Source of the DNA: Actinomycetes bacterium
GTDB lineage: Bacteria; Actinomycetota; Humimicrobiia; Humimicrobiales; Humimicrobiaceae
Length of the DNA stretch: 64,000 nt
Direction: 5' to 3'
NCBI GenBank assembly: GCA_022396035.1
Contig: JAIOXO010000008.1
Location: 1,830-65,829, forward strand
A program made the position numbers and the translations under genes. Below the pieces are notes generated by a model, which worked only from the letters and a program-made list of their open reading frames with translations, ran no database searches and was not told the origin of the DNA. Shown here piece by piece: positions 15,646 through 40,927 of the stretch. The stretch's first letter is position 1, and the number at the start of each line of letters is the position of its first letter.

Positions 15646-16494
15646 GTGGTGGATATGGAAACCGTTTTAACTGGAAATAAGTGTGAGGTTAAATTTGGGT
15701 TGGATTTGCCTACGATAATAATTGCTGAAAGAATAAACCCTACAGGTAGAAAAGCATTAGCCCAGCAGTTAAAAGAAGGCAAGCTGGATATGGTAAAAGA
15801 GGATGCCAGACAACAAACAGAAGCGGGGGCAGAGGTTATAGATATCAATGTGGGAGCGGTAGGAGTGGATGAAGTTGAGCTTCTTCCCAAAGCGGTAAAG
15901 GCAGTTATGGAAGTAACTGACCGGCCTGTATGCATTGATTCTTCAAATCCCCAGGCCCTTAAGGCAGCCCTGGAGGTATGTCCTTATAAGCTGCTCATAA
16001 ACTCGGTAACCGGAGAAGAAAAATCCATGGAGGAAATATTACCGGTAGTAAAAGAAAGCGGCAGTGCCGTAGTTTGCCTTACCTGTGACGAGAAAGGTAT
16101 ACCAAAGGATACGGAAACCAGATTCAATATAGCAAAGCGGATACTGGAAAAGGCAGAGTCATTAAAGATACCCAGGGAAAACCTGGTTTTTGATTGTCTG
16201 GTTATGACCAATTCTACTGACTCAAATTCAGCCAGAATAACTTTGGAAACTATGAGAAAGGTAACCAGAGAGTTTGGGGTTTCAACTACCATGGGCGCTT
16301 CCAATATAAGTTACGGGATGCCCAACCGGAACCTGTTAAATATTCATTTTATAACCATGTCCATCCTGAACGGCCTTTGTGCTCCTATTGCGGATCCTTT
16401 AACAGAAGGCTTGAAAACAGCAATGAAAGCTGCGGATTTTCTGTCGGGAAGGGATCCCTATGGCATGAATTACATAGCTGATTATAGAAAATAG
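15646..16494 (+). CDS. Methyltetrahydrofolate:corrinoid methyltransferase (pterin-binding MeTr/AcsE-like TIM barrel)
   Basis: IIAERINPTGRK, GAEVIDINVG, CIDSSNP, LINSV and GASNISYGMP. Confidence 0.8.
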   Translation: MVDMETVLTGNKCEVKFGLDLPTIIIAERINPTGRKALAQQLKEGKLDMVKEDARQQTEAGAEVIDINVGAVGVDEVELLPKAVKAVMEVTDRPVCIDSSNPQALKAALEVCPYKLLINSVTGEEKSMEEILPVVKESGSAVVCLTCDEKGIPKDTETRFNIAKRILEKAESLKIPRENLVFDCLVMTNSTDSNSARITLETMRKVTREFGVSTTMGASNISYGMPNRNLLNIHFITMSILNGLCAPIADPLTEGLKTAMKAADFLSGRDPYGMNYIADYRK

Positions 16495-17648: not shown

Positions 17649-17729
17649 TAGAATAAAATAGCCAAATGGAAAGTAAAGCACAATATTTTAATATATTGTG
17701 CTTTACTATATTTTAAGTAAAATAATTAT

Positions 17730-18860
17730 ATGAGCCTTAAATATGATGTAATAATTTCAGGGGCCGGACCTTCTGGAAGTTTGCTTGCCTTCCTGCTGTC
17801 TTCAATCAATATTAAAACCCTGGTGCTGGAGAAAAAATCTTTCCCACGTCCCAAGATCTGTGCCGGGGGTCTGCAGCACAGGGCTGCAAGATTATTGCCC
17901 TTTAGTATTGACCCGGTGGTTGAAAAGATAATTTACGGCGTTTACTTTTCCTATAGATCCAAGCATATCTTTGATAGAACTTACCATGTTCCACTGATAT
18001 ATATGCTGGACCGGGCAAAATTCGACCAATTTTTGGCAGAAAAAGCCAGGCAGGCAGGAAGTGATTACCACTATGAATGTCCGGCTACAGATTACGAAGT
18101 AAGCAATAATTATATTACAGTAAAAACCCCGAAAAAAGTTTTTACCAGCAGGCTGCTGGTGGGAGCTGATGGCGCAAGAGGTATGGTACATAGAAAATTA
18201 GTGTCCAATAAACAGCTGTTTAAGATAATCGGCTACGAGTTTGAGCTAGGCAGAAATAAGGTGAACGGCCATCTGAACCTAAACAGGAATATTGCCATTG
18301 ATATTGGAGGAGTAAAAGGGGGTTATGCGTGGGTATTTCCAAAAAACAAGAATTTATCCATAGGTATTGGAGGGCCACATTATGATGCCAGGCACATAAA
18401 AAAATATTTTAAGAAGTTTCTTTCCCGATACGTCTTGTTTGAAGACATTATTAGCGATGTCAAAATTTATGGCCAATGCATACCAGTTAGAAAAGCAGAT
18501 ACGCCTATTTGTGATTACCGGGTGCTGGCCATAGGGGATGCTGCCGGGCTGGGAGATGCATTTACCGGCGAAGGACTCTTCAATTGTTTTAAGAGTGCTC
18601 TTTTAGCCAGTGAAAGCATAAACAGGGCTTTGACCCAGGGAAATTTTACTTTTGAAGACTATGGCAGAAAAATTGCTGATATAGTTTATGAAGATATAAG
18701 GATCTCCATGCTGTTTTCCAAGCTTTTTTTCCTATTTCCCTTTCTAATATATAATATACTCAAAAAAAATGATAAGATATTTGACGTATGCTGCCAGGTA
18801 CTCCGGGGAGATAAAAGTTATAAACATCTGGCACAAAAATTAAAAATTTTTAAATACTGA
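17730..18860 (+). CDS. Geranylgeranyl reductase family FAD oxidoreductase
   Basis: GAGPSG, KICAGG, DRAKFD, GADG, GYAWVFPK and GDAAG..DAFTGEG. Confidence 0.85.
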   Translation: MSLKYDVIISGAGPSGSLLAFLLSSINIKTLVLEKKSFPRPKICAGGLQHRAARLLPFSIDPVVEKIIYGVYFSYRSKHIFDRTYHVPLIYMLDRAKFDQFLAEKARQAGSDYHYECPATDYEVSNNYITVKTPKKVFTSRLLVGADGARGMVHRKLVSNKQLFKIIGYEFELGRNKVNGHLNLNRNIAIDIGGVKGGYAWVFPKNKNLSIGIGGPHYDARHIKKYFKKFLSRYVLFEDIISDVKIYGQCIPVRKADTPICDYRVLAIGDAAGLGDAFTGEGLFNCFKSALLASESINRALTQGNFTFEDYGRKIADIVYEDIRISMLFSKLFFLFPFLIYNILKKNDKIFDVCCQVLRGDKSYKHLAQKLKIFKY

Positions 18861-18895
18861 GAGGTTGTTTTTAGATATTTTGGAAAGGAAAAGTT

Positions 18896-19702
18896 ATGGA
18901 TGATAAAAATACCGAAACTACCATTATCCAGATTTCGGACCTGCATGTAGGAGAATCTCAATTTGTTCCCAGTCTTCTAACCAGGGCTATTGACGAGATA
19001 AATGAAGTAGACCCTGACATGGTGATAATTACCGGGGACCTTACCGGCAATGGCTTTAGAAGAGAGTATGACACAGTTAAAAACTACCTGGCACCCATAA
19101 AATGCGCCAATATAATAATACAGCCCGGCAACCATGATTCCAGGAATGTTGGCTATATGCATTTTGAGGATATATATGGGGAAAGGTACTTAAGTTTCAG
19201 AGATAGGGGAGTAACTGTGGTAGCTGCTGATTCCAGTGAACCGGATTTGGATAATGGACAGATAGGAAGAGAATATTATAAGTTTATAAGAAATGAATTC
19301 AGTAAATGCCAGCAAAAGGAATATAAAATTTTCAGCATGCACCATCATCTCATACCTATACCCAAGACCGGAAGGGAAAGGAATATCGTAACTGATGCCG
19401 GAGATGTTCTAGAGGTTTTGGCTGAATGCGAGGTTGACCTGGTACTTTGCGGCCACAAGCATGTTCCTTATATCTGGAGCGTGGAGGATATGTATATTCT
19501 TACTGCCGGCACTGTTTCCTGTTTGCGGTTAAGGGGTAGAATTGAACCAAGCTATAATATTATAAAAATAAGAGATGAAGCCATAGACATCTACAGAAGA
19601 TTTCCTTTTGACAAAGTGGAGAAAGTCCTGGGTTTAAAGAGAAGGACTGAAAAGAAAAAAATTAATGATAGATTTGTTAAAGAGAAAAAAGAACTTAAAT
19701 AA
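18896..19702 (+). CDS. Calcineurin-like metallophosphoesterase (CpdA/Icc-like)
   Basis: SDLH, TGDLT, PGNHD, MHHH and GHKH metal-ligand motifs. Confidence 0.9.
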   Translation: MDDKNTETTIIQISDLHVGESQFVPSLLTRAIDEINEVDPDMVIITGDLTGNGFRREYDTVKNYLAPIKCANIIIQPGNHDSRNVGYMHFEDIYGERYLSFRDRGVTVVAADSSEPDLDNGQIGREYYKFIRNEFSKCQQKEYKIFSMHHHLIPIPKTGRERNIVTDAGDVLEVLAECEVDLVLCGHKHVPYIWSVEDMYILTAGTVSCLRLRGRIEPSYNIIKIRDEAIDIYRRFPFDKVEKVLGLKRRTEKKKINDRFVKEKKELK

Positions 19703-21023
19703 GCGTCTGGTAGCGCTTATAGATGGCGAGCATTATCCCGACGTAACTCACGATGCCATACAGAAACTCAGGGACTTATTCCCTGGTGAGGTAGTGGGCA
19801 TTATTTTTCTGGGAGGAACAGAAAAGCTGATTATGGATGACCCGGAAAAATATTTCGGGGAGAAATTATTCGTTATAAAAGATCTTGATTCTGATTTCCG
19901 CAAGGCCCTAAATGTGTTCCACCCGGATATAGCCTATGATCTGAGTGATGAACCGGTAGTAAATTACAGGATTAGAATGAAAATAGCTTCCTACTGTATG
20001 GCTGCTGGTTGCAGTTATATGGGTCCTGATTTCTTGTTTGAATATAGCCCTAAATCATTAAGTATAAGCAAGCCATCTATTTCCATTATCGGCACCGGCA
20101 AAAGGCTGGGCAAAACAGCTATAAGTGGTTATATATCCAAACAGATGGTTAAAAACAATATAGATGTTTGCGTCCTGGCTATGGGAAGGGGCGGCCCGGC
20201 CCAGCCCCAGGTAATTAAGGGAGGCGATGTTAAGATAACCCCGGAATTCCTTTTAGATTTGAGCCACAAGGGGCTCCATGCCAGTTCTGACTATCTTGAA
20301 GATGCTTTAATGAGCAGTATTACTACTGTAGGTTGCAGAAGATGTGGAGGGGGATTTGGCGGTAAGATATTTTTGACCAATATAAAACAGGGTATTAAGA
20401 AAGTGGAACAGATAGATCCTCATCTGGCAATAGTGGAGGGAAGCGGGGCTTCAATACCTGATGTAAAGACCGATGCTGCTATCTGTGTTATGGGGGCTTA
20501 CCAGGACTGGGATAGTATAATTGGATACTTGGGCCTTTATAGAATAATGGTATCGGATATGGTGGTGATAACCATGTGTGAATCACCTTTGGCAGACCAG
20601 AACAAAATAGATTTTCTCAAACAGCAGGTGGCCTTATTAAACCCTTCGGCAAAAGTATTTACTTCTGTGTTCAGGCCCCAGCCCTTACAGGATATAAAGG
20701 GTAGGCAGGTTTTTGTAGCCATGACTGCAAAACATAATATCGAGAAGGAAATTAAAACCTATATAGAAAAACAATTTAGCTGCAGGGTAAAATATATTTC
20801 ATTTAATCTTTCTAACCGAAAACGGCTGAGAAGGGATTTGGAGACTGCTGAGGGGTATGATACTATACTAACTGAACTTAAAGCAGCATCCGTAGATGTA
20901 CTTACTGATTTTGCTTTCAGTAATGAAAAACTTATTGTTTATATGAATAATATCCCCATTATGAATGACTCTATCCAGTTTGAGCAGGAATTGTTAAATA
21001 TTTATGGAAGGATAAACAAATAA
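19665..21023 (+). CDS. cpgS: Cyclic 2,3-diphosphoglycerate synthetase
   Basis: 452 aa. ALIDGEHYP, DLSDEPV, GTGKRLGKT, AMGRGGP, HASSDYLED, GCRRCGGG and TELKAASVD motifs as in archaeal cDPGS. Confidence 0.88.
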   Translation: MIDLLKRKKNLNKRLVALIDGEHYPDVTHDAIQKLRDLFPGEVVGIIFLGGTEKLIMDDPEKYFGEKLFVIKDLDSDFRKALNVFHPDIAYDLSDEPVVNYRIRMKIASYCMAAGCSYMGPDFLFEYSPKSLSISKPSISIIGTGKRLGKTAISGYISKQMVKNNIDVCVLAMGRGGPAQPQVIKGGDVKITPEFLLDLSHKGLHASSDYLEDALMSSITTVGCRRCGGGFGGKIFLTNIKQGIKKVEQIDPHLAIVEGSGASIPDVKTDAAICVMGAYQDWDSIIGYLGLYRIMVSDMVVITMCESPLADQNKIDFLKQQVALLNPSAKVFTSVFRPQPLQDIKGRQVFVAMTAKHNIEKEIKTYIEKQFSCRVKYISFNLSNRKRLRRDLETAEGYDTILTELKAASVDVLTDFAFSNEKLIVYMNNIPIMNDSIQFEQELLNIYGRINK

Positions 21024-21956
21024 ATGCAAAAAAGGTATCCACCGGAACCCAATGTAATAGTAATATCGGACAAAAAAAGCGGTTTGCCTTTTTCCAAGGG
21101 CATACTGGCTTCTTCCATAGCAGTAGCTGGCCTGGATTATGCTACTTCCCACCGGATTGCTTTAGATATTCAGGAATATTTTATAGACAATAAAATAAAT
21201 TCAGTCTCGCTGGAAGAACTTAGATCCCTGGCTTTCAGGTTTATAAAAGAGGAAGTGGGGCTGGAGCAGGCTGAAAAATATCTGTTGTGGCAGTCGGTAG
21301 GCAAACTCAAAAAACCTACCATAATTTTAATAGGCGGAGCCACAGGGGTAGGCAAATCAACTATTGCTACCCTTATTGCCAGCAGGCTCAATATAACCAG
21401 GATTGTATCCACTGACGCTATCAGGGAAGTTATGAGGGCTTCGGTTTCGGATAAATTGATCCGGCCGCTGAGAGGGTCTTCTTATAATGCATATAAAAAC
21501 CTTACTCTGCCGCCTTCAGGAGTGGAACCGGTAATCCTTGGTTTCAGGGAGCAGGTAATGGCTGTAGCGGTGGGAGTAGAGGCAATTATAAGGAGGAGCG
21601 TAGAAGAGAAATCTGACATTGTGATAGAGGGAGCCCATGTAGTCCCTGGTTATTTAGATATTGAGGAGTTTGCCTCCAAAGCCCTTATAATCGAGATTGT
21701 AATTTCAGTTCCAGATAAGGAAGTACATAAGGAGCATTTTACCAAGCGAACCTATGAAACTCAGGGCTCCAGGCCAATGCAAAGGTATATTAAGCATCTG
21801 GACAAGATTCAAAAAATACAGGCATACATTGAAGAATTAGCTTCAAAAAACAGGGTCAAGAAAATTGTTAATTACGACCTGGACAGCACTGTATCTGAGG
21901 TGCTGGAAGTTATATTTGCTATGGTAAAAAAAGAGTTCAGCAAGGTAGGAAATTAG
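21024..21956 (+). CDS. pgk2: 2-phosphoglycerate kinase (ATP-cone + P-loop)
   Basis: N-terminal PFSKGILA ATP-cone, LIGGATGVGKST, STDAIREVMR and IEGAHVVPG. Abuts cpgS. Confidence 0.88.
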   Translation: MQKRYPPEPNVIVISDKKSGLPFSKGILASSIAVAGLDYATSHRIALDIQEYFIDNKINSVSLEELRSLAFRFIKEEVGLEQAEKYLLWQSVGKLKKPTIILIGGATGVGKSTIATLIASRLNITRIVSTDAIREVMRASVSDKLIRPLRGSSYNAYKNLTLPPSGVEPVILGFREQVMAVAVGVEAIIRRSVEEKSDIVIEGAHVVPGYLDIEEFASKALIIEIVISVPDKEVHKEHFTKRTYETQGSRPMQRYIKHLDKIQKIQAYIEELASKNRVKKIVNYDLDSTVSEVLEVIFAMVKKEFSKVGN

Positions 21957-21959
21957 TAT

Positions 21960-22379
21960 TTATTCTATCTCAAATTCAGTGGTTAGGACAGGGTGGTTTA
22001 CAAGGTTGACCGAAACCCTGTATTTTCCCTCCGGCACCAGACCGTTTCTCTTTACCATGGTTATGGTTATTATTCCCGAACCGCTATTTTCTGGATATAT
22101 GGTATCATGCTGCACAGCTATGTAGTCGCCATCTTCATATTTTTTCCAGCTGACCTCTATCATGTTATCTAGTTTCAGGTTTTCTGCTTCGATCAACAGG
22201 AATATATCGGTTATAGAATCAGAAGAGAATAGGGGATCAAGGATGCTGTTTTCAGGCATATTGTTCTGACTGGAAACATAGATGCCTTTAATTTTGGGCT
22301 CTTTGTAGACGGTAGTAACAGAGATGGCAATGAGAATAAATGTACAAACAATAATTATTATGATACTTTTCTTGGTCAT
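21960..22379 (-). CDS. Hypothetical membrane-anchored protein with probable beta-sandwich domain
   Basis: 139 aa. N-terminal TM helix, then a beta-rich segment ending GKYRVSVNL. Confidence 0.55.
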   Translation of the reverse strand: MTKKSIIIIIVCTFILIAISVTTVYKEPKIKGIYVSSQNNMPENSILDPLFSSDSITDIFLLIEAENLKLDNMIEVSWKKYEDGDYIAVQHDTIYPENSGSGIITITMVKRNGLVPEGKYRVSVNLVNHPVLTTEFEIE

Positions 22380-22475
22380 AATTTCCTAGTCTAATTTTTA
22401 GGTTATTATAAGTGGTATTAGTTAATTTTTCTAATGGTGAAATAAAAACTCTATAACAGGCTTATCCTTTTCTAT

Positions 22476-22504
22476 TTGACTTAAACTTTTTTATGGGCTA
22501 TATT
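22476..22504 (+). promoter_or_regulatory. Putative sigma70 promoter
   Basis: TTGACT-17-TATATT upstream of 22531. Confidence 0.5.
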
Positions 22505-22875: not shown

Positions 22876-23343
22876 ATGATTTTTTTATTAATCTTATCCT
22901 TTATATTAATATGGGTTCAGCTGTCCAGCCTGAGATTTCTGGTAGCGGCAAAAAATAATAGCGCAATTCTTGATAATGCTGAAAAGCTTGAACAGGAGAT
23001 GCCTGAGAAGAAGGATATTTCATTAAAGTCATTGCCGGTATTATTTTCCCTGGGAACAGTAATCTCTCTAAACCTAATAGAAATCGCCTATTTTGTGGTA
23101 TGTGTATATGTGTTTGCAGACCTTATTACCAAAATTGGAAGTTCCATAATGGTAGGCTATTCCATTTATTCTCTGATAAAATTTATACCCAGGGTAAAAA
23201 AATTCTTCCAGAAACCGGCCCAATACTTAAGGCAGAAAACACAGGGTTTTGAAAGGAAGCTCAACCTGGTTATGGCTTCTATTGAAATTGTTTTTTGTTC
23301 ATATATACTTATAAAGACATTAATTAAATACAAGGTCTTTTAA
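22876..23343 (+). CDS. Hypothetical membrane protein (about 4 TM)
   Basis: 155-aa hydrophobic ORF with no recognised motif. Confidence 0.55.
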   Translation: MIFLLILSFILIWVQLSSLRFLVAAKNNSAILDNAEKLEQEMPEKKDISLKSLPVLFSLGTVISLNLIEIAYFVVCVYVFADLITKIGSSIMVGYSIYSLIKFIPRVKKFFQKPAQYLRQKTQGFERKLNLVMASIEIVFCSYILIKTLIKYKVF

Positions 23344-23346
23344 CCA

Positions 23347-23907
23347 GTGGCAGAAAAGAAGACAACTAAAAAGCTTCCAGTGATAATAGGGACAGTAATT
23401 AGCGTTGCCTTTATTGTATTACTGATAATATTTATCCCTCAGATACTGGGTAATTTAAATAATCAGGGCGCAACCAGCCAGATTATCGTGCCCGAGAAAC
23501 AGGAAAAAGAAGAAGAGGACGATAACCAGTTATATGACCAGCTGGAGGGCAACCAGGATCTTATTGATACTTTCTCCTGCTTCTATTACCCTGATTCAGA
23601 AATTAAGGCTTTTGAAGTTATTGAACAGGACGAGGACTTGCTGTATTTACAGTTAGAAACTGATGAAGATTTTGGAACAGTTCAGGACTTTTATAAAAGT
23701 AAAAAAGTACAGTCTGTATGGTCCCAGTCCGATATTTTTGAAAGCAGCACACTTTCTTTGGAACAACAATTCTTGGATGGCGAGGCTTCCAGCCTAAGCG
23801 CAAAGTTTACTTATAACAGCAATCAGAGAGATAGAGTGGTAAATATTTTGATTAATTCCATGGCTGAGAACAAAACAGATATTATGATTATCTACTGGAA
23901 TCTTTAG
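23347..23907 (+). CDS. Hypothetical membrane-anchored protein
   Basis: 186 aa. Single N-terminal TM followed by an acidic domain; coupled to its neighbours. Confidence 0.55.
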   Translation: MAEKKTTKKLPVIIGTVISVAFIVLLIIFIPQILGNLNNQGATSQIIVPEKQEKEEEDDNQLYDQLEGNQDLIDTFSCFYYPDSEIKAFEVIEQDEDLLYLQLETDEDFGTVQDFYKSKKVQSVWSQSDIFESSTLSLEQQFLDGEASSLSAKFTYNSNQRDRVVNILINSMAENKTDIMIIYWNL

Positions 23908-25695: not shown

Positions 25696-26130
25696 ATGTT
25701 CCTGGGAGAATATAAGAGGGTTATAGATAAAAAAGGAAGAATATTTATCCCTTCCAAGTTCAGGGAAGATTTGTTTAGTGGGGTTATTATTTCAAAAGGC
25801 TTTGATGAGAGATGCCTTTTTTTGTTTTCCAGGGAAGGCTGGACCAAGCTTCGAGATAGAATTATATCCATGCCGGTAACCAAAAAAAATACCCAGAAGT
25901 TTTCAAGATGGTTTTTCTCTTCAGCTACTGAGGAAGGAATGGATCAGCAGGGAAGAGTAAAAATTCCTCAGAGTTTAATAGAATATTCACAGATAAAAAA
26001 AGATATTGTACTGGTCGGGGTTTCAGACAGGGCCGAAATATGGGCAAAAGAGGTATGGGATGAGTACTACAGGCAGGCAGATGACCAGTTTATGGGTAAA
26101 GATACAACTTTTGAAGATTTAGGTTTTTAA
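25696..26130 (+). CDS. mraZ: Division/cell-wall cluster repressor MraZ
   Basis: MFLGEY..IDKKGRIFIP, DQQGRVKIP and GVSDRAEIW. Confidence 0.95.
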   Translation: MFLGEYKRVIDKKGRIFIPSKFREDLFSGVIISKGFDERCLFLFSREGWTKLRDRIISMPVTKKNTQKFSRWFFSSATEEGMDQQGRVKIPQSLIEYSQIKKDIVLVGVSDRAEIWAKEVWDEYYRQADDQFMGKDTTFEDLGF

Positions 26131-26136
26131 AAGGAC

Positions 26137-27075
26137 ATGATAATAAATGAATATCATGAACCGGTTCTTTTACAGGAGGTTTTAAGTTATCTAGATTTAA
26201 AACAAGGCGATACTGTTTTTGATGGAACACTTGGCGGTGCTGGCCATACTATAGCAATAATTAAAGAAATTGCCCCCACAGGCAAAGTAATTGGAGTAGA
26301 TCTAAGTAGCCAGGCCATAAGCACCGCCACCAGAAAACTTGAAAGATTTAAGGACAAAGTAATATTGGTTAATGATAATTTTGCCAATATTAAAAGTATT
26401 CTGGAGGAGCTTGGATTTATCACAGTGGACAAGATATTGCTTGATTTGGGGTTATCTTCCTATCAGATTGAAAAATCAGGCAAAGGTTTTAGTTATATCA
26501 GAGATGAGAAACTGGATATGAGATTCGGATCCCGGGGATTAAGTGCTTATGAAGTGGTAAATCATTACCGGGAAGAAGACCTGAAGAAGATATTTTACCA
26601 GTATGGGGAAGAGAAGTGGGCTAAGATGATAGCAGCTAACATTGTCAGCAAAAGAGAGAAAGAAGAAATCCGGACTACTGGCAGGCTGGCTGAAATTGTA
26701 GCTGAATCGATACCGCGCAGCAGAAAACCAAGAAAGGGTCACCCGGCCAAAAGGGTTTTTCAGGCCATACGTATTGAAGTAAATGAAGAGCTGAAGAACC
26801 TTAGTACTGCAATTGATGATGGATTTGAAGTATTATCCGAAGGCGGAAGAATGGCTATTATATCTTATCATTCATTGGAAGACAGGATAGTCAAGAATAA
26901 GTTTCTGGATTTTAAAGGCAAGTGCACTTGCCCCCCAGATTTTCCTGTATGCAGGTGTGGGGCAGTAAAGAAAGCGAACCTGTTAACTAAAAAAGCGGTA
27001 AAAGCCACCCTACAAGAGGTTGAGAAAAATCCCAGGGCTAGTAGTGCAAAATTAAGGGTAATAGAAAAGATATAG
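26137..27075 (+). CDS. rsmH: 16S rRNA m4C1402 methyltransferase
   Basis: HEPVLL, DGTLGGAGH, DLGLSS, LDMR, FQAIRIEVN, SYHSLEDR and NPRASSAKLR. Confidence 0.95.
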   Translation: MIINEYHEPVLLQEVLSYLDLKQGDTVFDGTLGGAGHTIAIIKEIAPTGKVIGVDLSSQAISTATRKLERFKDKVILVNDNFANIKSILEELGFITVDKILLDLGLSSYQIEKSGKGFSYIRDEKLDMRFGSRGLSAYEVVNHYREEDLKKIFYQYGEEKWAKMIAANIVSKREKEEIRTTGRLAEIVAESIPRSRKPRKGHPAKRVFQAIRIEVNEELKNLSTAIDDGFEVLSEGGRMAIISYHSLEDRIVKNKFLDFKGKCTCPPDFPVCRCGAVKKANLLTKKAVKATLQEVEKNPRASSAKLRVIEKI

Positions 27076-27079
27076 GAAC

Positions 27080-27610
27080 ATGGGTTTAAAATTAGCACAA
27101 AAAGAAAATGTGTACTCTAGGAGGTCTTATCCTCTGCTTTATCTGGTGGATAAAAGCCAGAAAGGTAAGCAAAAAATTGTGTATTCCAACAGCAGTCTGT
27201 TTTATTTGATAGTGGCTGCAGTTATAATGGTTTGTATGGGAGCATTGTTTAATGTTGGTTTAAAAATACAGAACATAAACTACCAGGAAGAGATTCTGAA
27301 TTTAAACCAGATGATCTCCGTCGAAGAAGAAAGACAGGACAGATTACTGCTTAGAGTATCTGAACTCAAGTCTCCAAAAAGAATACTGGATGTAGCTTCC
27401 CAGAGTCTGGGTATGGAAATATCCGAGAATATGGAAGTAATCGAGGTTGCCCAGGCAGATATTGAGACCAATGAACAGATGCAGCAGTATCTGGCTAAGG
27501 GGCCATCGGATGCAGCCGAGCAATACAATAATTTTATGGGCACTATTTATTATGTGCAGGATATAGTAATGGTGGTATCTGAAAGCGTTTTAACATTTTT
27601 TATACCCTGA
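27080..27610 (+). CDS. ftsL: Cell division protein FtsL-like (with C-terminal extension)
   Basis: Lies between rsmH and the PBP gene. One TM, a coiled coil, and the LKSPKRI...LGM motif. Confidence 0.7.
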   Translation: MGLKLAQKENVYSRRSYPLLYLVDKSQKGKQKIVYSNSSLFYLIVAAVIMVCMGALFNVGLKIQNINYQEEILNLNQMISVEEERQDRLLLRVSELKSPKRILDVASQSLGMEISENMEVIEVAQADIETNEQMQQYLAKGPSDAAEQYNNFMGTIYYVQDIVMVVSESVLTFFIP

Positions 27611-27618
27611 TATAAGAT

Positions 27619-29337
27619 GTGAAAAACAAGCAAATGAGAAGGCAAAAGGACCATAAAGTAAGCAGGAAAAGAATTTATTTCCTGTTTATTTTGTTTTTAC
27701 TGGGTTTTTTTATTCTTGCCTATAAACTGGTGGATATACAATATATTAATGCTTCAAAGTACAAGAGTTATGCTGATTACCAGCATACCGATGAATCTAT
27801 TCTAAGTGCCAAAAGAGGCAAGATACTGGATAGAAACGGGATAGAACTGGCAGTAAGTTTGATTGAAAAAACGGTATATGCCAATCCAAAACGGGTAGCA
27901 GATACAGTAACTGAAGCTGCCATTTTATCTGATATTTTGGATTTGGACCAGGAAGAAATTATTCAAAAACTAAGCCAGGATGATCTGGGGTTTGTGTATG
28001 TGCAAAGAAAAGTAGGTACAGAGGTTGCCGAGGAGATAGAACAATTGAATTTACCGGGAATCTATATACAGAATGAAGCTAAAAGATTTTATCCCCAGGA
28101 TACCCTGGGGGCGGCTATAATTGGTTTTACGGGTATTGATAATAACGGTTTATCCGGAATTGAACTTCAATATGAGAAGAATCTCAGGGGCGTGGATGGT
28201 AAATTTATTGCCGAGAAAGATGTATTTGGCAATATTATTCCAGGGGACAAGCAAACCTATATAGAACCCATTAACGGAGACGATATTATGCTTACCATTG
28301 ATTCCCAGATCCAATATTTTGCCGAACAGGAACTTCAAAAAGTAGTAGAAGATTATAGTGCGTTAAGGGGCATGGTAGTTATAATGAATCCGGATAACGG
28401 TGAAGTATATGCTATGGCCAATTATCCGGTTTTTGACCCCAATGATTATGAAGACTATGATCCGGAAACCTATAAACTGCTGGGGACCTCTTATACTTAT
28501 GAGCCCGGCTCTACTTTTAAAATTATAAATATTGCGTCTGCTCTGCAGAATGGGCGCGTGGGAAGTGAGCAGTTATTTAATCTTCCTGCCCAGATACAGG
28601 TTGGAGACAGATTTATTAAAGAAATATTCAGGACAGCTCCTATCGATTACAGCACCAAGGATATAATTAAAAATTCCAGTAATGTAGGGGCAGTAAAAGT
28701 CGCTCTTGCTATGGGCAGACAGTTGTTCTGGGAAAGCGTGAAAGAATTTGGCTTTGGGCAAAAGACAGGAATCGATTATCCCGGGGAAGAATCAGGGTAT
28801 ATGTATGACTACCGTACCTGGCCGGAATCAACCATAGGGGCCATGGCTATTGGTCAGAGTATTACAGTTACCCCTATACAGCTGCTGAGGGCTGCCAGTG
28901 CCATTGCTAATGGTGGTTATCTGGTAACCCCCAACCTGGTGAAAGAAATAAGTAAGAAAGAGGATTTACTGAAAATTGACAATGAAAAAGGTAAGGTAAG
29001 AATTCTTGACCAGGATACCTCCAATCGGGTAAAGGACATGATGCTGGCAGTAGTTGAAGGGGGGACGGGGCAAAATGCAGGGGTGGAAGGAGTAAAGGTA
29101 TGCGGTAAAACCGGTACTGCGGAAAAAGCTAATAAAAATGGAGCAGGTTATGATGAGGGAAGGGTTATAACTTCATTTATAGGGTATGCTCCTTATGAAC
29201 ATCCCCAGGCAGCAATTCTTATAGTAATAGATGAACCCCAGGGAGGAGAAAATGAGATCTGGGGTGGAACGGTTGCAGCACCCCTTTTCAGCAAATTAAT
29301 GAAGTTTTCTCTACAGAGACTAAGCATGATAAATTAG
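27619..29337 (+). CDS. ftsI: Class B penicillin-binding protein (FtsI/PBP3-like)
   Basis: RGKILDRNG, GIELQY, SxxK in EPGSTFK, SSN and KTGTA. Confidence 0.9.
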   Translation: MKNKQMRRQKDHKVSRKRIYFLFILFLLGFFILAYKLVDIQYINASKYKSYADYQHTDESILSAKRGKILDRNGIELAVSLIEKTVYANPKRVADTVTEAAILSDILDLDQEEIIQKLSQDDLGFVYVQRKVGTEVAEEIEQLNLPGIYIQNEAKRFYPQDTLGAAIIGFTGIDNNGLSGIELQYEKNLRGVDGKFIAEKDVFGNIIPGDKQTYIEPINGDDIMLTIDSQIQYFAEQELQKVVEDYSALRGMVVIMNPDNGEVYAMANYPVFDPNDYEDYDPETYKLLGTSYTYEPGSTFKIINIASALQNGRVGSEQLFNLPAQIQVGDRFIKEIFRTAPIDYSTKDIIKNSSNVGAVKVALAMGRQLFWESVKEFGFGQKTGIDYPGEESGYMYDYRTWPESTIGAMAIGQSITVTPIQLLRAASAIANGGYLVTPNLVKEISKKEDLLKIDNEKGKVRILDQDTSNRVKDMMLAVVEGGTGQNAGVEGVKVCGKTGTAEKANKNGAGYDEGRVITSFIGYAPYEHPQAAILIVIDEPQGGENEIWGGTVAAPLFSKLMKFSLQRLSMIN

Positions 29338-29393
29338 GGTTTGGATATTTTGATTTTTATGTTAAACCAAATTATTATAAGTTCAGGAACAAT

Positions 29394-30860
29394 ATGAAGT
29401 TAAAAAAGATACTAGAGGGATTAGATTACCGGCTGCTGAAGGGAAGTTTGGACCAGGATATAAAGGATGTATGTATTAACTCCAAACAGGTTAAAAGCGG
29501 AAGCCTGTTTGTGGCAATCCAGGGATTTAAAACCGACGGGCATAATTTTATAGGACAGGCTGCTGATAATGGGGCTGAAGCTGTGGTTTTGCAGAGAAAA
29601 CCCGCGCAGGATTTACCCCTGTTCCAGGTTTTAGTAAAGGACAGCAGGGCTAGCCTGGCCGGCATAGCTGCTAATTTTTTTAATCACCCCAGCAACAAAA
29701 TGAAGCTGGTGGGAATAACCGGCACTAATGGCAAAACTACTACCTGTTTTTTAATAAATTCAATATTCAGACAGGCTGGCAAAAATTCATCTATGATAAC
29801 TACGGTTAAGTCCTTTATAAAGGATAAAGAAATAAAGTTTGACCGAACCACCCCTGATGCCCTGGAGCTCAACCGTTTTTTTGATGATAGTGTAAAGCAG
29901 GGGGCAGAAGCAGCGGTTATGGAAGTGTCTTCACATTCCCTGGATTTAAAAAGGGTAAATCATATATGCTTTGAAGGTTTTGTATTTACTAATTTATCCC
30001 AGGATCATCTGGATTATCATCACACTATGGATAATTATTTTGAGGCAAAACAAAAATTGTTCAAACCTTTGAATCGAAAACTTTATGGGGGAAAATTTGC
30101 GGTTATAAATATTGACGATGATTACGGTCAAAAGTTATATCAGGCAACTGATTTAGAAACCACCGGTTATTCCCTAAACAATGAATCAGCTGAGCTGAAG
30201 GCAGAAAATATAGAAAACAGCATAGAAGGCTTAAAGTTTGATTTGTATTATAAAGGTAAGAAGTTTCTGGCCATAAATTCCAGGCTTTCCGGCCGGTTTA
30301 ATGTTTACAATATTATGGCGGCAGTAGGGGTTGTTAACAATATGGGAATTGACCGCCAAGTTATAAGACAGGGAGTGGAAGCACTGTCAGGGGTGCCGGG
30401 AAGGTTTGAGAAGATAGATACAGATATGGATTTTACAGTGATTGTTGATTATGCCCATACACCGGATGGCCTTCAGAATGTATTGTCTACCATCCAGCAA
30501 TTAAAAAAGAAAAATAGCCGGGTAATAACTATTTTTGGCTGTGGCGGAGACAGGGATCAGAAAAAAAGGAAAATAATGGGTGCTGCTGCCGGTAAGTATT
30601 CTGATATAAGCATAATTACCTCCGATAACCCACGGTCCGAGGACCCCATGGCTATAATAGCCATGATAGAAAAAGGTTTTACCGGCAGCAATGATTATTT
30701 AGTTATTCCCGACCGGAAAGAAGCGATAGGGGAAGCCCTCCATCTGGCCAAAACCGATGATATAGTCTTAATAGCAGGGAAGGGGCATGAAGATTATCAG
30801 GAATTTGCAGATTACCGGATACATTTTAGTGACCAGGAAATAGTAAGAAATATTTTATAG
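29394..30860 (+). CDS. murE: UDP-MurNAc-dipeptide:meso-DAP ligase
   Basis: GITGTNGKTT, TTPD, MEVSSH, TNLSQDHLDYH, DYAHTPD and the DNPR meso-DAP specificity motif. Confidence 0.95.
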   Translation: MKLKKILEGLDYRLLKGSLDQDIKDVCINSKQVKSGSLFVAIQGFKTDGHNFIGQAADNGAEAVVLQRKPAQDLPLFQVLVKDSRASLAGIAANFFNHPSNKMKLVGITGTNGKTTTCFLINSIFRQAGKNSSMITTVKSFIKDKEIKFDRTTPDALELNRFFDDSVKQGAEAAVMEVSSHSLDLKRVNHICFEGFVFTNLSQDHLDYHHTMDNYFEAKQKLFKPLNRKLYGGKFAVINIDDDYGQKLYQATDLETTGYSLNNESAELKAENIENSIEGLKFDLYYKGKKFLAINSRLSGRFNVYNIMAAVGVVNNMGIDRQVIRQGVEALSGVPGRFEKIDTDMDFTVIVDYAHTPDGLQNVLSTIQQLKKKNSRVITIFGCGGDRDQKKRKIMGAAAGKYSDISIITSDNPRSEDPMAIIAMIEKGFTGSNDYLVIPDRKEAIGEALHLAKTDDIVLIAGKGHEDYQEFADYRIHFSDQEIVRNIL

Positions 30861-30867
30861 TGGTAAT

Positions 30868-32247
30868 ATGGAAAAGATTGAGTTAAACCAGATAATAAAG
30901 TGGACTGGATCCAGGAAATTGGCCGGTGGCGGTAGTGAATTCATTGGTTCAATTTCCACTGACAGCCGAAGCGTTGGAGCCGGTGATTTTTTTATCCCCT
31001 TAAAAGGCCCTAATTTTGATGGCCATAAATTTATACCGGAAGCCATAAAAAAAGGTGCCACTGGATTCGTTATTGAAAACTCATATGCAGCTGGTATAGA
31101 TATTGATTCATATGCCCATAAAATAGTACTGTCGGTGAAAGATACCCTGAAGTTTATGCAGGATGTGGCCTACCATTATATCAGGATGATCAATCCTGTG
31201 GTTATAGGTATTACCGGCAGTGCAGGAAAAACTACTACCAAGGATATGCTGGCAAGCATTCTGGGTGAGAGCCATGATATAGGATTTACTCCTAAAAACT
31301 ATAATAATGAAATAGGTGTGCCTAAAGCTATTTTGAATTTAGGGCAGCATACCGATTTTTTCATAGCGGAAATTGCCATGAGAAAAAAGGGTCAGATAAA
31401 ACAGCTGTCCCGGCTCATAGGGCCGGATATCGGGATTATTACCTCTGTTGGCGAGTCTCATTTGCAATTCTTTGAAAGTGTAGAGGAAATTGCCAGAACC
31501 AAGGCAGAAATTGCTTCTGAGCTATCCGGCAATAAGGGGGTACTGTTCTTAAATCACGATAATCCATGGACTGGCCTGATTAAAGATATATGCGGCTGTA
31601 GAACTAAACAATTCGGCCGCAACCATGACCTGGATTATAATTTTAAGAATGAGAGCATGGATAGCGGAGGTTGCTTTGGTTTTGATTTCTGCAACCGGAA
31701 AAACAGGCTGGCTACAGTACACTTAACCATTGCCGGCTACCATAATATTTATAATGCTTGTGCAGCGGCGGGAGTAAGCCATTATCTCCAGGTTTCTGTA
31801 GAGGATATCCGGAAGGGCCTGGCTGCAGCTGTAATTGAGAAAGACAGGATGCAGGTTTTAAAAAAGGGCAGCATTACTGTTATAGATGACTGCTATAACG
31901 CAAATCCCCTGTCGGTTGCCTGTGCCCTGGAGAGTTTAAGGCAAATTGCTGATATGAAGAAGGCAAGATCAGTAGCCGTACTTGCGGAAATGCTTGAGCT
32001 TGGCCCGGATTCAGACCAACTTCATTATGAAATGGGCAAAAAAATTGCGGAAAACAATATTGACCTGCTTATAACTTTTGGTAAGATAGCCAGAAACATC
32101 AACCAGGGTTACGGGAAGGACAGTTATTATTTTGAAAATAAGCAGGATTGCCTGGAGGCCATAAGAGGCTTGATTAAAGCTGGTGATGTGGTTTTAATTA
32201 AAGGCTCCCGGGCAAACCGGATGGAAGATATCATAGACAAAATTTAG
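30868..32247 (+). CDS. murF: UDP-MurNAc-tripeptide:D-Ala-D-Ala ligase
   Basis: GITGSAGKTTTK, NYNNEIGVP, DDCYNANP and IKGSR. Confidence 0.95.
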   Translation: MEKIELNQIIKWTGSRKLAGGGSEFIGSISTDSRSVGAGDFFIPLKGPNFDGHKFIPEAIKKGATGFVIENSYAAGIDIDSYAHKIVLSVKDTLKFMQDVAYHYIRMINPVVIGITGSAGKTTTKDMLASILGESHDIGFTPKNYNNEIGVPKAILNLGQHTDFFIAEIAMRKKGQIKQLSRLIGPDIGIITSVGESHLQFFESVEEIARTKAEIASELSGNKGVLFLNHDNPWTGLIKDICGCRTKQFGRNHDLDYNFKNESMDSGGCFGFDFCNRKNRLATVHLTIAGYHNIYNACAAAGVSHYLQVSVEDIRKGLAAAVIEKDRMQVLKKGSITVIDDCYNANPLSVACALESLRQIADMKKARSVAVLAEMLELGPDSDQLHYEMGKKIAENNIDLLITFGKIARNINQGYGKDSYYFENKQDCLEAIRGLIKAGDVVLIKGSRANRMEDIIDKI

Positions 32248-32259
32248 ATGGGAACATAG

Positions 32260-33273
32260 ATGAACTGGATTTTTTTATCAATAATAATTGGCGGGCTTAT
32301 ATCGCTGGTGGCAACACCGGTATTCATAAAGTTTCAAAAAAGCAAACAGATTGGTGAAAGTATAAGGGTTGATGGCCCTAAAACCCATTCGGCAAAGGTT
32401 GGCACTCCCACCATGGGAGGGATGGTATTTGTGTTGTCTTCTCTTATCGCTTTTGCTGCAGCCAGCCTTATAAAGTATTTCAGGTACCAGGAGTTCAGTT
32501 ATGAAGGTATCTTTGTGTTTTCAGTATTTATAATGTGTTCACTGATAGGTTTTATTGATGATTATATTTCTCTGAAAAAAAAGAGATCACTGGGCTTGCG
32601 GGGCTGGGTTAAGATATTTTTGCTGGTCCTGGTCTGCCTCTATTTTGTGATTGTCGGGATATGGGTACTGAACTTGGACACTACTATTGGTCTGCCTTCG
32701 ACCTCTATAGTATGGGATATGGGAAACTGGTACTATGTCCTGGTGGTAATTATCATAATAAGTGCTACCAATGCAGTAAATTTAACCGATGGCCTGGACG
32801 GACTGGCTGCAGGAACTTCTTCTATTGTGTTAGGTATGTTTTTATTTATAGCTTTTCTGGAATGGTCCATCTTTGATATAAGTTACGGAATCGATATTGC
32901 GGTCATTTGCGGGGGCACTATTGCTGCCTGTATCGGGTTTTTATGGTGGAATACTGCGCCGGCAGAGATATTTATGGGTGATACTGGTTCCTTTGGGCTG
33001 GGAGGGTTGATAGCTGCTGTGGCTATTATCTTAAAACAGGAATTATTGCTGCTGGTTATAGGAGGAATTTTTGTAATAGAAACCCTTTCGGTAATTATAC
33101 AGGTGCTCTGGTTTAAAATGTTTAAAAAGAGGGTATTCAAAATGGCTCCCATACACCATCATTTTGAGGTAATGGGCTGGCCGGAAATAAAGGTGATCAT
33201 AAGGTTCTGGATAGTGGGAGCTCTGCTAGCAGGGCTGGGATTCTTTATGTATTATGTAAAATTTATAGACTAG
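32260..33273 (+). CDS. mraY: Phospho-N-acetylmuramoyl-pentapeptide transferase
   Basis: KVGTPTMGG, GFIDDY, NAVNLTDGLDGLA, FMGDTGS and MAPIHHHFE. Confidence 0.96.
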   Translation: MNWIFLSIIIGGLISLVATPVFIKFQKSKQIGESIRVDGPKTHSAKVGTPTMGGMVFVLSSLIAFAAASLIKYFRYQEFSYEGIFVFSVFIMCSLIGFIDDYISLKKKRSLGLRGWVKIFLLVLVCLYFVIVGIWVLNLDTTIGLPSTSIVWDMGNWYYVLVVIIIISATNAVNLTDGLDGLAAGTSSIVLGMFLFIAFLEWSIFDISYGIDIAVICGGTIAACIGFLWWNTAPAEIFMGDTGSFGLGGLIAAVAIILKQELLLLVIGGIFVIETLSVIIQVLWFKMFKKRVFKMAPIHHHFEVMGWPEIKVIIRFWIVGALLAGLGFFMYYVKFID

Positions 33274-33282
33274 CAGGCATTT

Positions 33283-34656
33283 ATGTTTTTAGAAGGCAAA
33301 AATTTGCTGGTGTTGGGCCTGGGTAAAACCGGCCTTGCGGTAATAGATAGAATGCACAAGTTGGCAGATACCATAATTGCTGTTGATGACAATCCCATGG
33401 CTGAAACTGGAAACATAAAAGAGAAGGGTATAAGGATTGTGCTGGGCAATGATGCAAGTAATAAAGAGGTCTTGGATGATGTCGATATCATTATTACCAG
33501 CCCGGGGATCCCGGGGAGCCATCCCCTAATACAATATGCCCAGGAAATAAATATTCCCATTTGGAGTGAGCTGGAGCTGGGCTGGAGCTTGCTACCTCTG
33601 CAAGAAAAAAAGAAGGCCATAGCGGTAACTGGTACCAATGGTAAAACTACGGCTGTAAATCTTCTGGGACGTATGCTGTCAGTAAATAACTTGAAGGTTA
33701 AGGTATGTGGAAATGTTGGTGATCCGATTATTAATACAGTGGATGAAAAGGGAATTTTTAGGGTAATAGAGGTTAGCAGTTTTCAACTGGAACGGTCAAA
33801 CAGCTTTGCTCCTTTTGTTGGCATTCTGCTTAATATCAGCAGCGATCATATAGACAGGCATGGAACTATAGAACAATATGCTGAAACCAAGTTTAAATTA
33901 TTTTCGCATCAGACTAGGTCAGATTTTTCTATTTTAAACAGAGATGATCCCATAATTACCCAGACAGTATCCGGAATTAACCTTAGATCCAGAGTTATAA
34001 CCTATGGGCTCAAGCAAGATAAGAGTCTTAACCTACGGTATGACCGGCCTTATGTAGTTTATAAAATTGGCCAGAAACAAGGACGTATCAGCATAGAGAA
34101 GGCCAATCTGGGGGGCAAACATAATATTTTAAATATTATGTCCTGCGTAGCGGCAGCAGTAATTCTTGGGATTGAAGATAATATAATAGAAAAAGCTGTC
34201 AGTGATTTTATGCCCCTCAAGCATCGTTTGGAGTACCTGGGAAATTGCCGGGGGATTGATTGCTATAATGATTCTAAAGCAACCAATCCTCATGCCACAA
34301 TTGCTGCTCTTGATAATTTCAGCAAACCCCTGACCCTTATTCTGGGAGGCAAAGACAAGGGAATGGATTTAGATGATTTGTTTGAGGCTATAGATAAAAA
34401 GGTTTCCCATCTTATTCTTTTGGGGGAGTCCAGAAAGAAAATACAGCAAGTTTTAGATAAAAGACAAAGCACTTTTAATGTGCATATGGCAAAATCTCTG
34501 AAGCAGGCGGTGGATACAGGCCTGTCACTAACGCCAAGCGGCGGAATATTGCTATTGTCCCCGGCATTTGCAAGTATGGATATGTTTAAAGATTATAAAG
34601 ATAGGGGAAATCAGTACAGGGCCATGATAGAGGAAAGAATAAATGACCGTAGATAG
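33283..34656 (+). CDS. murD: UDP-MurNAc-L-Ala:D-Glu ligase
   Basis: GLGKTG, SPG, TGTNGKTT, EVSSFQL, DHIDRH, NDSKATN and SPAFASMDMF. Confidence 0.95.
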   Translation: MFLEGKNLLVLGLGKTGLAVIDRMHKLADTIIAVDDNPMAETGNIKEKGIRIVLGNDASNKEVLDDVDIIITSPGIPGSHPLIQYAQEINIPIWSELELGWSLLPLQEKKKAIAVTGTNGKTTAVNLLGRMLSVNNLKVKVCGNVGDPIINTVDEKGIFRVIEVSSFQLERSNSFAPFVGILLNISSDHIDRHGTIEQYAETKFKLFSHQTRSDFSILNRDDPIITQTVSGINLRSRVITYGLKQDKSLNLRYDRPYVVYKIGQKQGRISIEKANLGGKHNILNIMSCVAAAVILGIEDNIIEKAVSDFMPLKHRLEYLGNCRGIDCYNDSKATNPHATIAALDNFSKPLTLILGGKDKGMDLDDLFEAIDKKVSHLILLGESRKKIQQVLDKRQSTFNVHMAKSLKQAVDTGLSLTPSGGILLLSPAFASMDMFKDYKDRGNQYRAMIEERINDRR

Positions 34657-36917: not shown

Positions 36918-36918
36918 A

Positions 36919-39160: not shown

Positions 39161-39161
39161 C

Positions 39162-40913: not shown

Positions 40914-40927
40914 TTTGGAGGTTTGAT

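Follow-up and report, generated by a model that had tools for sequence, protein, structure and literature searches.

Positions 18896–21956 of the window (the whole 64,000-nucleotide stretch of DNA that was analysed) probably form, at an estimated probability of about 0.65 derived from sequence and gene context, a three-gene module for the metabolism of cyclic 2,3-diphosphoglycerate (cDPG) in an early-branching, Humimicrobiia-like actinobacterium. The module consists of the following genes:

18896–19702, + strand: metallophosphoesterase (MPE, P0123), 268 aa, Icc/CpdA/GpdQ/Rv0805 class, first gene of the module
19665–21023, + strand: cpgS, cDPG synthetase homologue (P0001), 452 aa
21024–21956, + strand: pgk2, 2-phosphoglycerate kinase family protein (P0002), 310 aa

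Gene organisation and integrity of the locus

The initial annotation had described cpgS and pgk2 as intact and directly abutting genes of a bacterial host, and these points were confirmed. Both open reading frames begin with ATG and contain no internal stop, and the TAA stop of cpgS (21021–21023) is immediately followed by the ATG of pgk2 at 21024, with a Shine–Dalgarno-like GGAAGGA placed 10 nt 5′ of this ATG. Homologues of 66–78% identity share the N-terminus MIDLLKRKKN..., in support of the start assigned to cpgS. Further, dcw genes encoding MraZ, RsmH, a PBP transpeptidase, MurE, MurF, MraY, MurD and FtsA lie downstream of the locus at 25696–42172, indicating that the host, an uncultured organism of saline lakes, is bacterial. 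The unit is, however, not the two-gene one that had been proposed, as the co-oriented MPE gene, which runs 38 nt into cpgS, had been overlooked.

To assess the assembly, independent sequences were compared. Positions 17700–22500 are contained within an independent 28.7 kb Logan contig with 0 differences, and the gene order around cpgS-pgk2 was found again in over 30 MAGs obtained by separate studies, so that a chimera is ruled out. Neither Rfam nor tRNA searches gave a match in the window. The GGR-family gene at 17730–18860 was considered as a further member of the module and rejected, because it is absent at several syntenic loci (L003, L004 and L005). A hairpin at 17672–17707 suggests that this gene may share a transcript with the module here.

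The cDPG synthetase and 2-phosphoglycerate kinase homologues

P0001 is clearly, as judged by alignment, a full-length cDPG synthetase orthologue with an intact predicted active site, in agreement with the initial assignment. It matched the Methanothermus fervidus cDPG synthetase structures 8ORK (apo) and 8ORU (with ADP, Mg and 2,3-DPG; PMC10690619) at about 390 bits over the full length, N-terminal domain included (8ORK, 389.9 bits, E = 1.5e-115, residues 12–436 vs. 4–436), and 9SXB at 348 bits. The two proteins are 45% identical over their full lengths, are of similar size (452 vs. 460 aa) and have a two-domain layout in common, including the family-specific N-terminal domain, which in M. fervidus comprises about 127 aa and is without other structural relatives. 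Homologues of P0001 carry this region as Pfam PF27272 (CpgS_N), while a Pfam search with P0001 itself gave no match in a Pfam copy that lacks PF27272.

The ligand residues reported for the solved complex (PMC10690619) correspond to E53, K54, K146, R147, K150, T151, D209, E306, T354, E404 and K406 of P0001, and those equivalent to the 2,3-DPG, Mg2+ and ATP ligands were invariant in an alignment of 14 sequences. In detail, the P-loop GTGKRLGKT spans residues 143–151 and differs by one residue from that of M. fervidus (IIGTGKRLGKTA vs. IIGTGKRIGKTA); the Mg2+ ligands are K150, T151 and D209 (K149, T150 and D208 in M. fervidus), and the 2,3-DPG-binding residues are K146 and R147 (K145 and R146). 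E53 and K54 are equivalent to E45 and K46, which are supplied by the partner subunit of the dimer, and the adenosine and ribose contacts E306, T354, E404 and K406 are equivalent to E305, T353, E404 and K406. The exact place of M. fervidus P335 was not fixed by residue count, although FRPxP is conserved. Three N-terminal motifs, DGEHY, GGTEK and DLSDEP, are retained as well. Unlike the M. fervidus enzyme, P0001 belongs to a bacterium of saline, non-hot habitats, and its gene is joined in an operon with pgk2 and the phosphoesterase gene, whereas cpgS has neither partner within 6 kb in Methanobacteriales (27 loci).

The kinase identity proposed for P0002 held at the family level. P0002 matched NCBIfam NF003259 over nearly the whole profile (residues 11–304 vs. 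5–295 of 306 positions) at 300 bits, below the curated equivalog cut-off of 343 bits, and it also scored below the cut-off of NF008994 (286 vs. 603 bits). The sister-kinase models NF008995 and NF008996 (mevalonate-3-phosphate 5-kinase) reached 154 and 93 bits, so P0002 is nearer to the 2-phosphoglycerate kinase models than to the sister kinases. Since these are by far the best matches and coverage is full-length, membership of P0002 in the 2-phosphoglycerate kinase family is clear, with equivalog status not granted. P0002 shares with the methanogen 2-phosphoglycerate kinase (NF003259/PRK04220) the full-length profile match, the Walker A motif (GATGVGKS, residues 105–112) and the N-terminal extra domain of about 90 residues that precedes the P-loop kinase core, and departs from it by the sub-cut-off score. 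The conserved adjacency to cpgS points to phosphorylation of 2-phosphoglycerate at O3 as the candidate function. The family also includes kinases for other substrates, for example mevalonate-3-phosphate 5-kinase, and neither a solved 2-phosphoglycerate kinase structure nor published specificity determinants were found in the material searched.

Linkage and candidate role of the metallophosphoesterase

MPE, cpgS and pgk2 are tightly packed, co-oriented and co-evolving genes under strong purifying selection. Among the 47 Actinomycetota loci examined, MPE lies directly upstream of cpgS-pgk2 in 44 (MPE identity 53–86%), and pgk2 follows cpgS at every locus with enough downstream flank. MPE is also upstream of cpgS at L081 and L084, while the Cloacimonadota locus L083 shows another order, cpgS-pgk2-CBS-MPE. 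The class-wide gene order is hisD-hisC-methyltransferase-ABC-(GGR)-MPE-cpgS-pgk2-...-xseA-mraZ-rsmH, and the MPE-cpgS-pgk2 block is kept despite different flanks, namely thrC/GHMP kinase ... transaldolase/rho in Aquicultor and glpX in a high-GC contig. Median identities to the window were 71% for MPE, 59% for cpgS and 75% for pgk2, compared with 52% for xseA and 50% for hisC, and pairwise identities of the three module genes correlated at r 0.92–0.96 (window plus 41 loci). This co-evolution and the conserved synteny indicate that the cluster was vertically inherited in the Humimicrobiia-like class, without recent transfer. A recently acquired island was likewise rejected, as GC stays at about 0.40 throughout the region and the gene order is common to the class.

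P0123 matched Pfam Metallophos (PF00149, E = 6.5e-18) and reached none of the NCBIfam models. Its nearest solved folds are class III phosphodiesterases, to which the similarity is weak (the GpdQ-type phosphohydrolase 2ZO9/2DXL and Rv0805, E = 4e-5 to 5e-3). All metal ligands are present, in the five motifs of calcineurin-like metallophosphoesterases, D-x-H, G-D, G-N-H-[DE], H and G-H-x-H (here DLH15–17, GD47–48, GNHD78–81, HHH149–151 and GHKH186–189), which are invariant in 49 sequences, and four further residues, R83, R160, R162 and R213, are invariant as well; these arginines would fit a polyanionic substrate. Metallophosphoesterases can hydrolyse phosphoanhydrides or phosphodiesters with neighbouring phosphates, which is the chemistry that a cDPG hydrolase would need.

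On the genomic linkage, P0123 may be a cDPG (or 2,3-DPG) hydrolase. Such an activity is known biochemically, with no gene named in a review (PMC1224877), and the methanogen enzyme is membrane-bound and inhibited by K+ and Pi (PMC1224877). P0123 differs from the membrane-bound activity of Methanothermobacter thermautotrophicus in that it looks soluble, since no hydrophobic segment was seen by eye.

Alternatively, the phosphoesterase could be merely a syntenic neighbour, such as a cyclic-nucleotide phosphodiesterase (its JGI name), leaving the cpgS-pgk2 pair as the functional unit. The closest solved and named relatives of P0123, which are cAMP and glycerophosphodiester phosphodiesterases, fit this reading, and so do L042, which carries cpgS-pgk2 and no phosphoesterase in 6 kb of upstream flank, and the archaeal loci without a phosphoesterase nearby. 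At L043 the phosphoesterase was not seen either, but merely about 200 nt are available upstream of cpgS. Inspection of the 27 Methanobacteriales loci to a distance of 6 kb from cpgS showed no orthologous phosphoesterase or pgk2, and the linkage is therefore not tied to a proven cDPG producer. Against a mere neighbour, the adjacency outlasts a full change of flanks and a change in GC content, and in Cloacimonadota even a different gene order; the phosphoesterase gene ends within the start of cpgS; its pairwise identities rise and fall with those of cpgS and pgk2 (r 0.93–0.96); and between distant lineages it is better conserved than either partner (54% vs. 37% and 33% at L081). Taken with these observations, the neighbour reading appears rather unlikely, though it keeps a substantial share of the probability.

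Proposed cDPG metabolism, distribution and habitat

In the three-gene module proposed here, Pgk2 would convert glycolytic 2-phosphoglycerate with ATP to 2,3-diphosphoglycerate (2,3-DPG), and CpgS would spend another ATP on forming the intramolecular pyrophosphate ring, releasing cDPG, ADP and Pi, by the mechanism that has been proposed for the M. fervidus enzyme. The host cell would by this route produce cDPG, and the trianionic compound would build up together with K+, serving as compatible solute and as a reserve of phosphate, carbon and energy. The phosphoesterase would open the ring (cDPG to 2,3-DPG) or strip phosphate from 2,3-DPG and so draw down the pool, a role that is plausible at somewhat less than even odds. 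As a cDPG/2,3-DPG hydrolase, it would mean that making and breaking are encoded together, for which the ppk-ppx operon of E. coli is a parallel. A wider proposal can be put forward only tentatively: instead of being a speciality of hot-living methanogens, cDPG might be widespread as a phosphate-rich solute among early-branching and soil Actinomycetota and in several further bacterial phyla, the phosphoesterase family travelling with cpgS-pgk2 being the cDPG hydrolase and the three genes a self-contained cycle that makes and releases a phosphate, energy and osmotic store.

It is improbable that the module handles 2,3-DPG and cDPG mainly for catabolism and energy yield, or as a small regulatory pool, with cDPG not a bulk solute. 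CpgS would then run in reverse (cDPG + ADP + Pi to 2,3-DPG + ATP), or the phosphoesterase would hold levels low. The M. fervidus synthetase reportedly works in both directions (PMC1224877), the module also encodes a hydrolase-like protein, and in Bacillota and Bipolaricaulota cpgS is accompanied by an ABC importer and a regulator of the GntR type (in Bipolaricaulota by iPGM also), with no pgk2 nearby, an arrangement that looks like uptake and breakdown. In the window, by contrast, cpgS is tied to pgk2, the supplier of its substrate from 2-phosphoglycerate, which is sensible only for synthesis, and the conserved Actinomycetota module has no transporter. Equally improbable is a drift of substrate, in which the kinase acts on another hydroxy-acid phosphate, the CpgS-like enzyme makes another cyclic or linear pyrophosphate and the phosphoesterase serves that pathway: the sub-cut-off score of Pgk2 and the high diversity of the family (169 clusters at E ≤ 1e-30, some members at 30–37% identity) would allow it, while the 45% full-length identity to the characterised enzyme and the retention of every 2,3-DPG and Mg2+ ligand of the solved complex, E53/K54 included, and of the three N-terminal motifs argue against it.

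Synthesis of cDPG had been regarded as not known to be demonstrated in this lineage, and no paper reporting cDPG in any bacterium was found, with some literature queries swamped by unrelated matches. As recently as 2023 and 2025, papers still confined cDPG to hyperthermophilic methanogens and saw its value in biotechnological use as an extremolyte (PMC10690619, PMC12136491), and its enzymatic production is now possible (PMC12136491). The claim can be tested at low cost, both substrates being accessible by now through enzymatic synthesis, and the M. fervidus enzyme pair has already been expressed in E. coli. Production of cDPG by bacteria of moderate, saline habitats would change the picture of the ecology and evolution of this solute and make mesophilic, easier-to-express enzymes available, and the phosphoesterase offers at last a candidate gene for the degradation step.

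The genes are not an isolated case. At least 550 species genomes, which represent four or more bacterial phyla and several groups of archaea, encode relatives, and NCBI and JGI use the name 2,3-diphosphoglycerate synthetase for these in Actinomycetota, Bacillota, Cloacimonadota and Bipolaricaulota. The same genes are thus already auto-annotated in many bacterial MAGs, which limits the value of the window itself. The implied transfer from archaea to bacteria was not shown, given the class-wide synteny and two trees without an outgroup, in which the backbone was unresolved and bacterial and archaeal clades interleaved.

The organism of the window and its close relatives were sampled in metagenomes of lakes, sediment, microbialites, hypersaline lakes and salt pans, and a rough estimate from sequence composition places optimal growth at about 49 °C. 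In such saline, non-hot habitats, osmotic balance or phosphate storage is likelier than heat protection, which is an improbable role here. In favour of transcription of the module, contigs of a salt-lake metatranscriptome, which are assembled, come from a relative and may include DNA, were 93–96% identical to the window over MPE, cpgS, the cpgS/pgk2 junction and pgk2, and 16 of their 18 listed differences in cpgS fell at third codon positions.

Gene products at the cpgS–pgk2 locus

The initial annotation described a complete two-gene pathway for cyclic 2,3-diphosphoglycerate (cDPG), cpgS plus pgk2. The two genes were confirmed as intact and directly abutting, the TAA stop of cpgS being followed by the pgk2 ATG with zero spacing, but a third gene at 18896–19702 had been overlooked:

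18896–19702, + strand: metallophosphoesterase (MPE) P0123, in the same orientation as cpgS and overlapping its start by 38 nt
19665–21023, + strand: cpgS (product P0001), intact ORF, 452 aa
21024–21956, + strand: pgk2 (product P0002), intact ORF, 310 aa

The annotated cpgS start is supported, because the N-terminus MIDLLKRKKN is kept in homologues at 66–78% identity. A separately assembled 28.7-kb contig, taken from a public sequencing run, matched 17700–22500 with 0 differences, and the GC content across the region was even at ~0.40. The cell-wall/division cluster downstream (MraZ, RsmH, PBP, MurE, MurF, MraY, MurD ... FtsA) bore out the bacterial nature of the host.

P0001 matched the two M. 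fervidus cDPG synthetase (cDPGS) structures with 390 bits (E 1.5e-115, residues 12–436) and a third cDPGS structure, 9SXB, with 348 bits. In the M. fervidus enzyme, 2,3-DPG is bound by E45/K46 of the partner subunit, K145 and R146, Mg2+ by T150 and D208, and ATP by K149, E305, T353, E404 and K406 (PMC10690619). The P0001 counterparts E53, K54, K146, R147, K150, T151, D209, E306, T354, E404 and K406 were all present, and none of the 11 varied when the window protein was aligned with 12 bacterial homologues and the M. fervidus enzyme. With cDPGS rather than unrelated P-loop proteins as best structures and the ligand residues kept, membership of the first ORF in the cDPGS family was upheld; PF27272 (CpgS_N) is listed for cpgS homologues in the protein database. 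The assignment of the second ORF to the 2-phosphoglycerate kinase (2PGK) family also held: P0002 matched the NCBIfam equivalog NF003259 over its full length, at 300 bits, below the curated cut-off of 343. Scores against a second 2PGK model and against the sister model for mevalonate-3-phosphate 5-kinase were 286 bits and only 93 bits, respectively; no solved 2PGK structure was found. P0123 is a calcineurin-like metallophosphoesterase carrying all five metal motifs and reached no NCBIfam model, its nearest relatives, by weak matches, being GpdQ, Rv0805 and CpdA-type phosphodiesterases. The three gene products have intact catalytic motifs and are encoded by linked genes.

Other neighbours were also recorded. 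A geranylgeranyl-reductase (GGR)-family flavoprotein (TIGR02032, 192 bits; 17672–18860 region) is encoded 35 nt upstream of the MPE gene and, since a strong 15-bp hairpin (17672–17707) precedes it, may be co-transcribed with the cDPG genes in the window; many, not all, syntenic relatives have a copy. The gene at 15646–16494, for an AcsE-like methyltetrahydrofolate:corrinoid/iron-sulfur protein methyltransferase (NF005719, 287 bits), is flanked by hisC and a lone MalK-type ABC ATPase in an order kept class-wide, and may be related to Wood-Ljungdahl-type C1 metabolism in early-branching Actinomycetota. Three conserved ORFs, 21960–22379 (−, convergent to pgk2 with a 3-nt gap), 22876–23343 (+) and 23347–23907 (+), lie in the pgk2–xseA interval; most Humimicrobiia-type loci keep them in synteny, at 25–56% identity, and they matched no Pfam or NCBIfam family.

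Linkage and inheritance of the three genes

When the window genes were searched by tblastn against 80 species-representative loci, the order MPE–cpgS–pgk2 was found in 44 of 47 Actinomycetota loci. Among the exceptions, one contig ended inside cpgS (L051), one held only ~200 nt upstream of cpgS (L043), and L042 had no phosphoesterase in its 6 kb upstream flank. The Humimicrobiia-type order is hisD–hisC–methyltransferase–ABC–(GGR)–MPE–cpgS–pgk2–<orf139–Zn ribbon–orf155–orf186–xseA–mraZ–rsmH, while Aquicultor-type genomes keep the triad within quite different flanks (thrC, GHMP kinase, transaldolase, rho). On a 3.3-Mb high-GC contig (L081) the triad lies beside glpX, and the phosphoesterase, at 54% identity, is the most conserved of the three (vs. 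37% and 33%). Triad neighbours at L081:8989–9837 and L084:577–1752, a glpX fructose-1,6-bisphosphatase and an archaeal-type phosphoglycerate mutase (ApgM), fit a tie of the triad to the phosphoglycerate pool. A Cloacimonadota MAG (L083:3260–9232) showed another order, cpgS–2PGK-like–CBS-domain protein–MPE, in which the 2PGK-like protein shares 35% identity with P0002 and the 499-aa phosphoesterase is orthologous to P0123 (317 bits to an HMM built in this analysis). Its CBS protein may be a regulator; a second Metallophos/5′-nucleotidase gene lies upstream.

Across the window and 41 loci, pairwise identities of the three proteins correlated (r 0.92–0.96), and the neighbouring genes xseA and hisC were less conserved than any of the three. 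Salt-lake metatranscriptome contigs that match the phosphoesterase, cpgS, pgk2 and the cpgS/pgk2 junction at 93–96% identity gave weak evidence that a relative transcribes the cluster; 16 of the 18 cpgS differences listed fell at third codon positions, and there was evidence of purifying selection on the cluster. The conserved unit is a triad, not a pair, and is inherited vertically in this class.

Proposed pathway and role

By analogy with the characterised archaeal pathway (PMC10690619, PMC1224877), Pgk2 would convert 2-PG and ATP to 2,3-DPG, and CpgS would convert 2,3-DPG and ATP to cDPG, ADP and Pi. We consider it probable (roughly 0.65–0.7) that the cpgS–pgk2 pair makes cDPG. The phosphoesterase might then mobilise the pool, by opening the cyclic pyrophosphate or dephosphorylating 2,3-DPG. 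Four arginines of P0123, invariant in addition to the metal ligands, are compatible with a polyanionic substrate. However, the cDPG hydrolase activity of M. thermautotrophicus, for which a review names no gene, is described there as bound to the membrane and subject to inhibition by K+ and Pi (PMC1224877), whereas P0123 looks soluble; the phosphoesterase is missing from L042 despite its 6 kb of upstream flank, and a check of 27 Methanobacteriales loci found no orthologue up to 6 kb from cpgS. Action of P0123 on cDPG or 2,3-DPG is tentatively proposed, as somewhat less likely than not, and among the new features of the locus this gene lends itself best to testing.

A thermoprotectant role is unlikely. 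DNA near-identical to the window came from lake-water, sediment, microbialite, hypersaline-lake, salt-pan and salt-lake metagenomes, and 56 window proteins gave a rough optimal growth temperature, estimated from amino-acid composition, of ~49 °C and a non-acidic proteome (median pI 7.7); the host is not a hyperthermophile. In such a habitat, cDPG would more plausibly serve osmotic balance with K+ and the storage of phosphate and energy than protect against heat.

Distribution of cpgS and its other operons

Papers of 2023 and 2025 describe cDPG as exclusive to hyperthermophilic methanogens (PMC10690619, PMC12136491). No report of cDPG or its two enzymes in a bacterium was found in the literature searched. 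31P-NMR work of the 1980s reportedly detected cDPG also in mesophilic Methanobacteriales. Relatives of cpgS are encoded in at least 550 species genomes, and an exhaustive search gave 169 clusters (50% identity) at E≤1e-30. Named members belong to Actinomycetota (Acidimicrobiales and several classes in all), Bacillota, Cloacimonadota, Bipolaricaulota/Acetothermia, Methanobacteriales, Thermococcus and Asgard archaea. Automatic annotation calls nearly all of them (cyclic) 2,3-diphosphoglycerate synthetase, and NCBI gives the name 2,3-diphosphoglycerate synthetase to a 95%-identical partial protein from an Actinomycetota MAG; bacterial cpgS genes are already named in databases, and the window extends the range by lineage and habitat, to Humimicrobiia and saline lakes. 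The closest relatives among the matches listed were Actinomycetota MAGs (53–78% identity), including Ca. Humimicrobium oleiphilum, Ca. Hydromicrobium, Ca. Calidifonticultor and Humimicrobiales. Humimicrobiia, a class within Actinomycetota, has been described as one of that phylum's basal branches (PMC10746217).

Both trees united the Humimicrobiia sequences in a single clade with full support, in which the window sequence was sister to MAG T3Sed10_139, and bacteria were not found nested within the sampled methanogens. Bacterial and archaeal clades interleaved on a backbone without resolution, so the trees give no direction for the archaea-to-bacteria transfer raised initially; a recent acquisition in Humimicrobiia is excluded by the class synteny. 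In one of the two trees the 9SXB protein (436 aa) paired, at support 100, with a protein of Thermococcus paralvinellae, and this pair was sister to the Bacillota clade (support 92), a possible archaeal–bacterial exchange apart from the Actinomycetota lineage.

In a Bacillota MAG (L048:5041–11219) and a Bipolaricaulota MAG (L082:1–7908), no pgk2 or phosphoesterase lay near cpgS, which instead belongs to a GntR-regulated operon that also encodes an ABC importer (binding protein, fused permease, ATPase with TOBE domain) and is directly followed in L082 by an iPGM phosphoglycerate mutase. These operons resemble systems that import and degrade an anionic phospho-compound, and may scavenge methanogen-released cDPG or 2,3-DPG via the reverse reaction; the M. 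fervidus cDPGS is reported to be reversible (PMC1224877).
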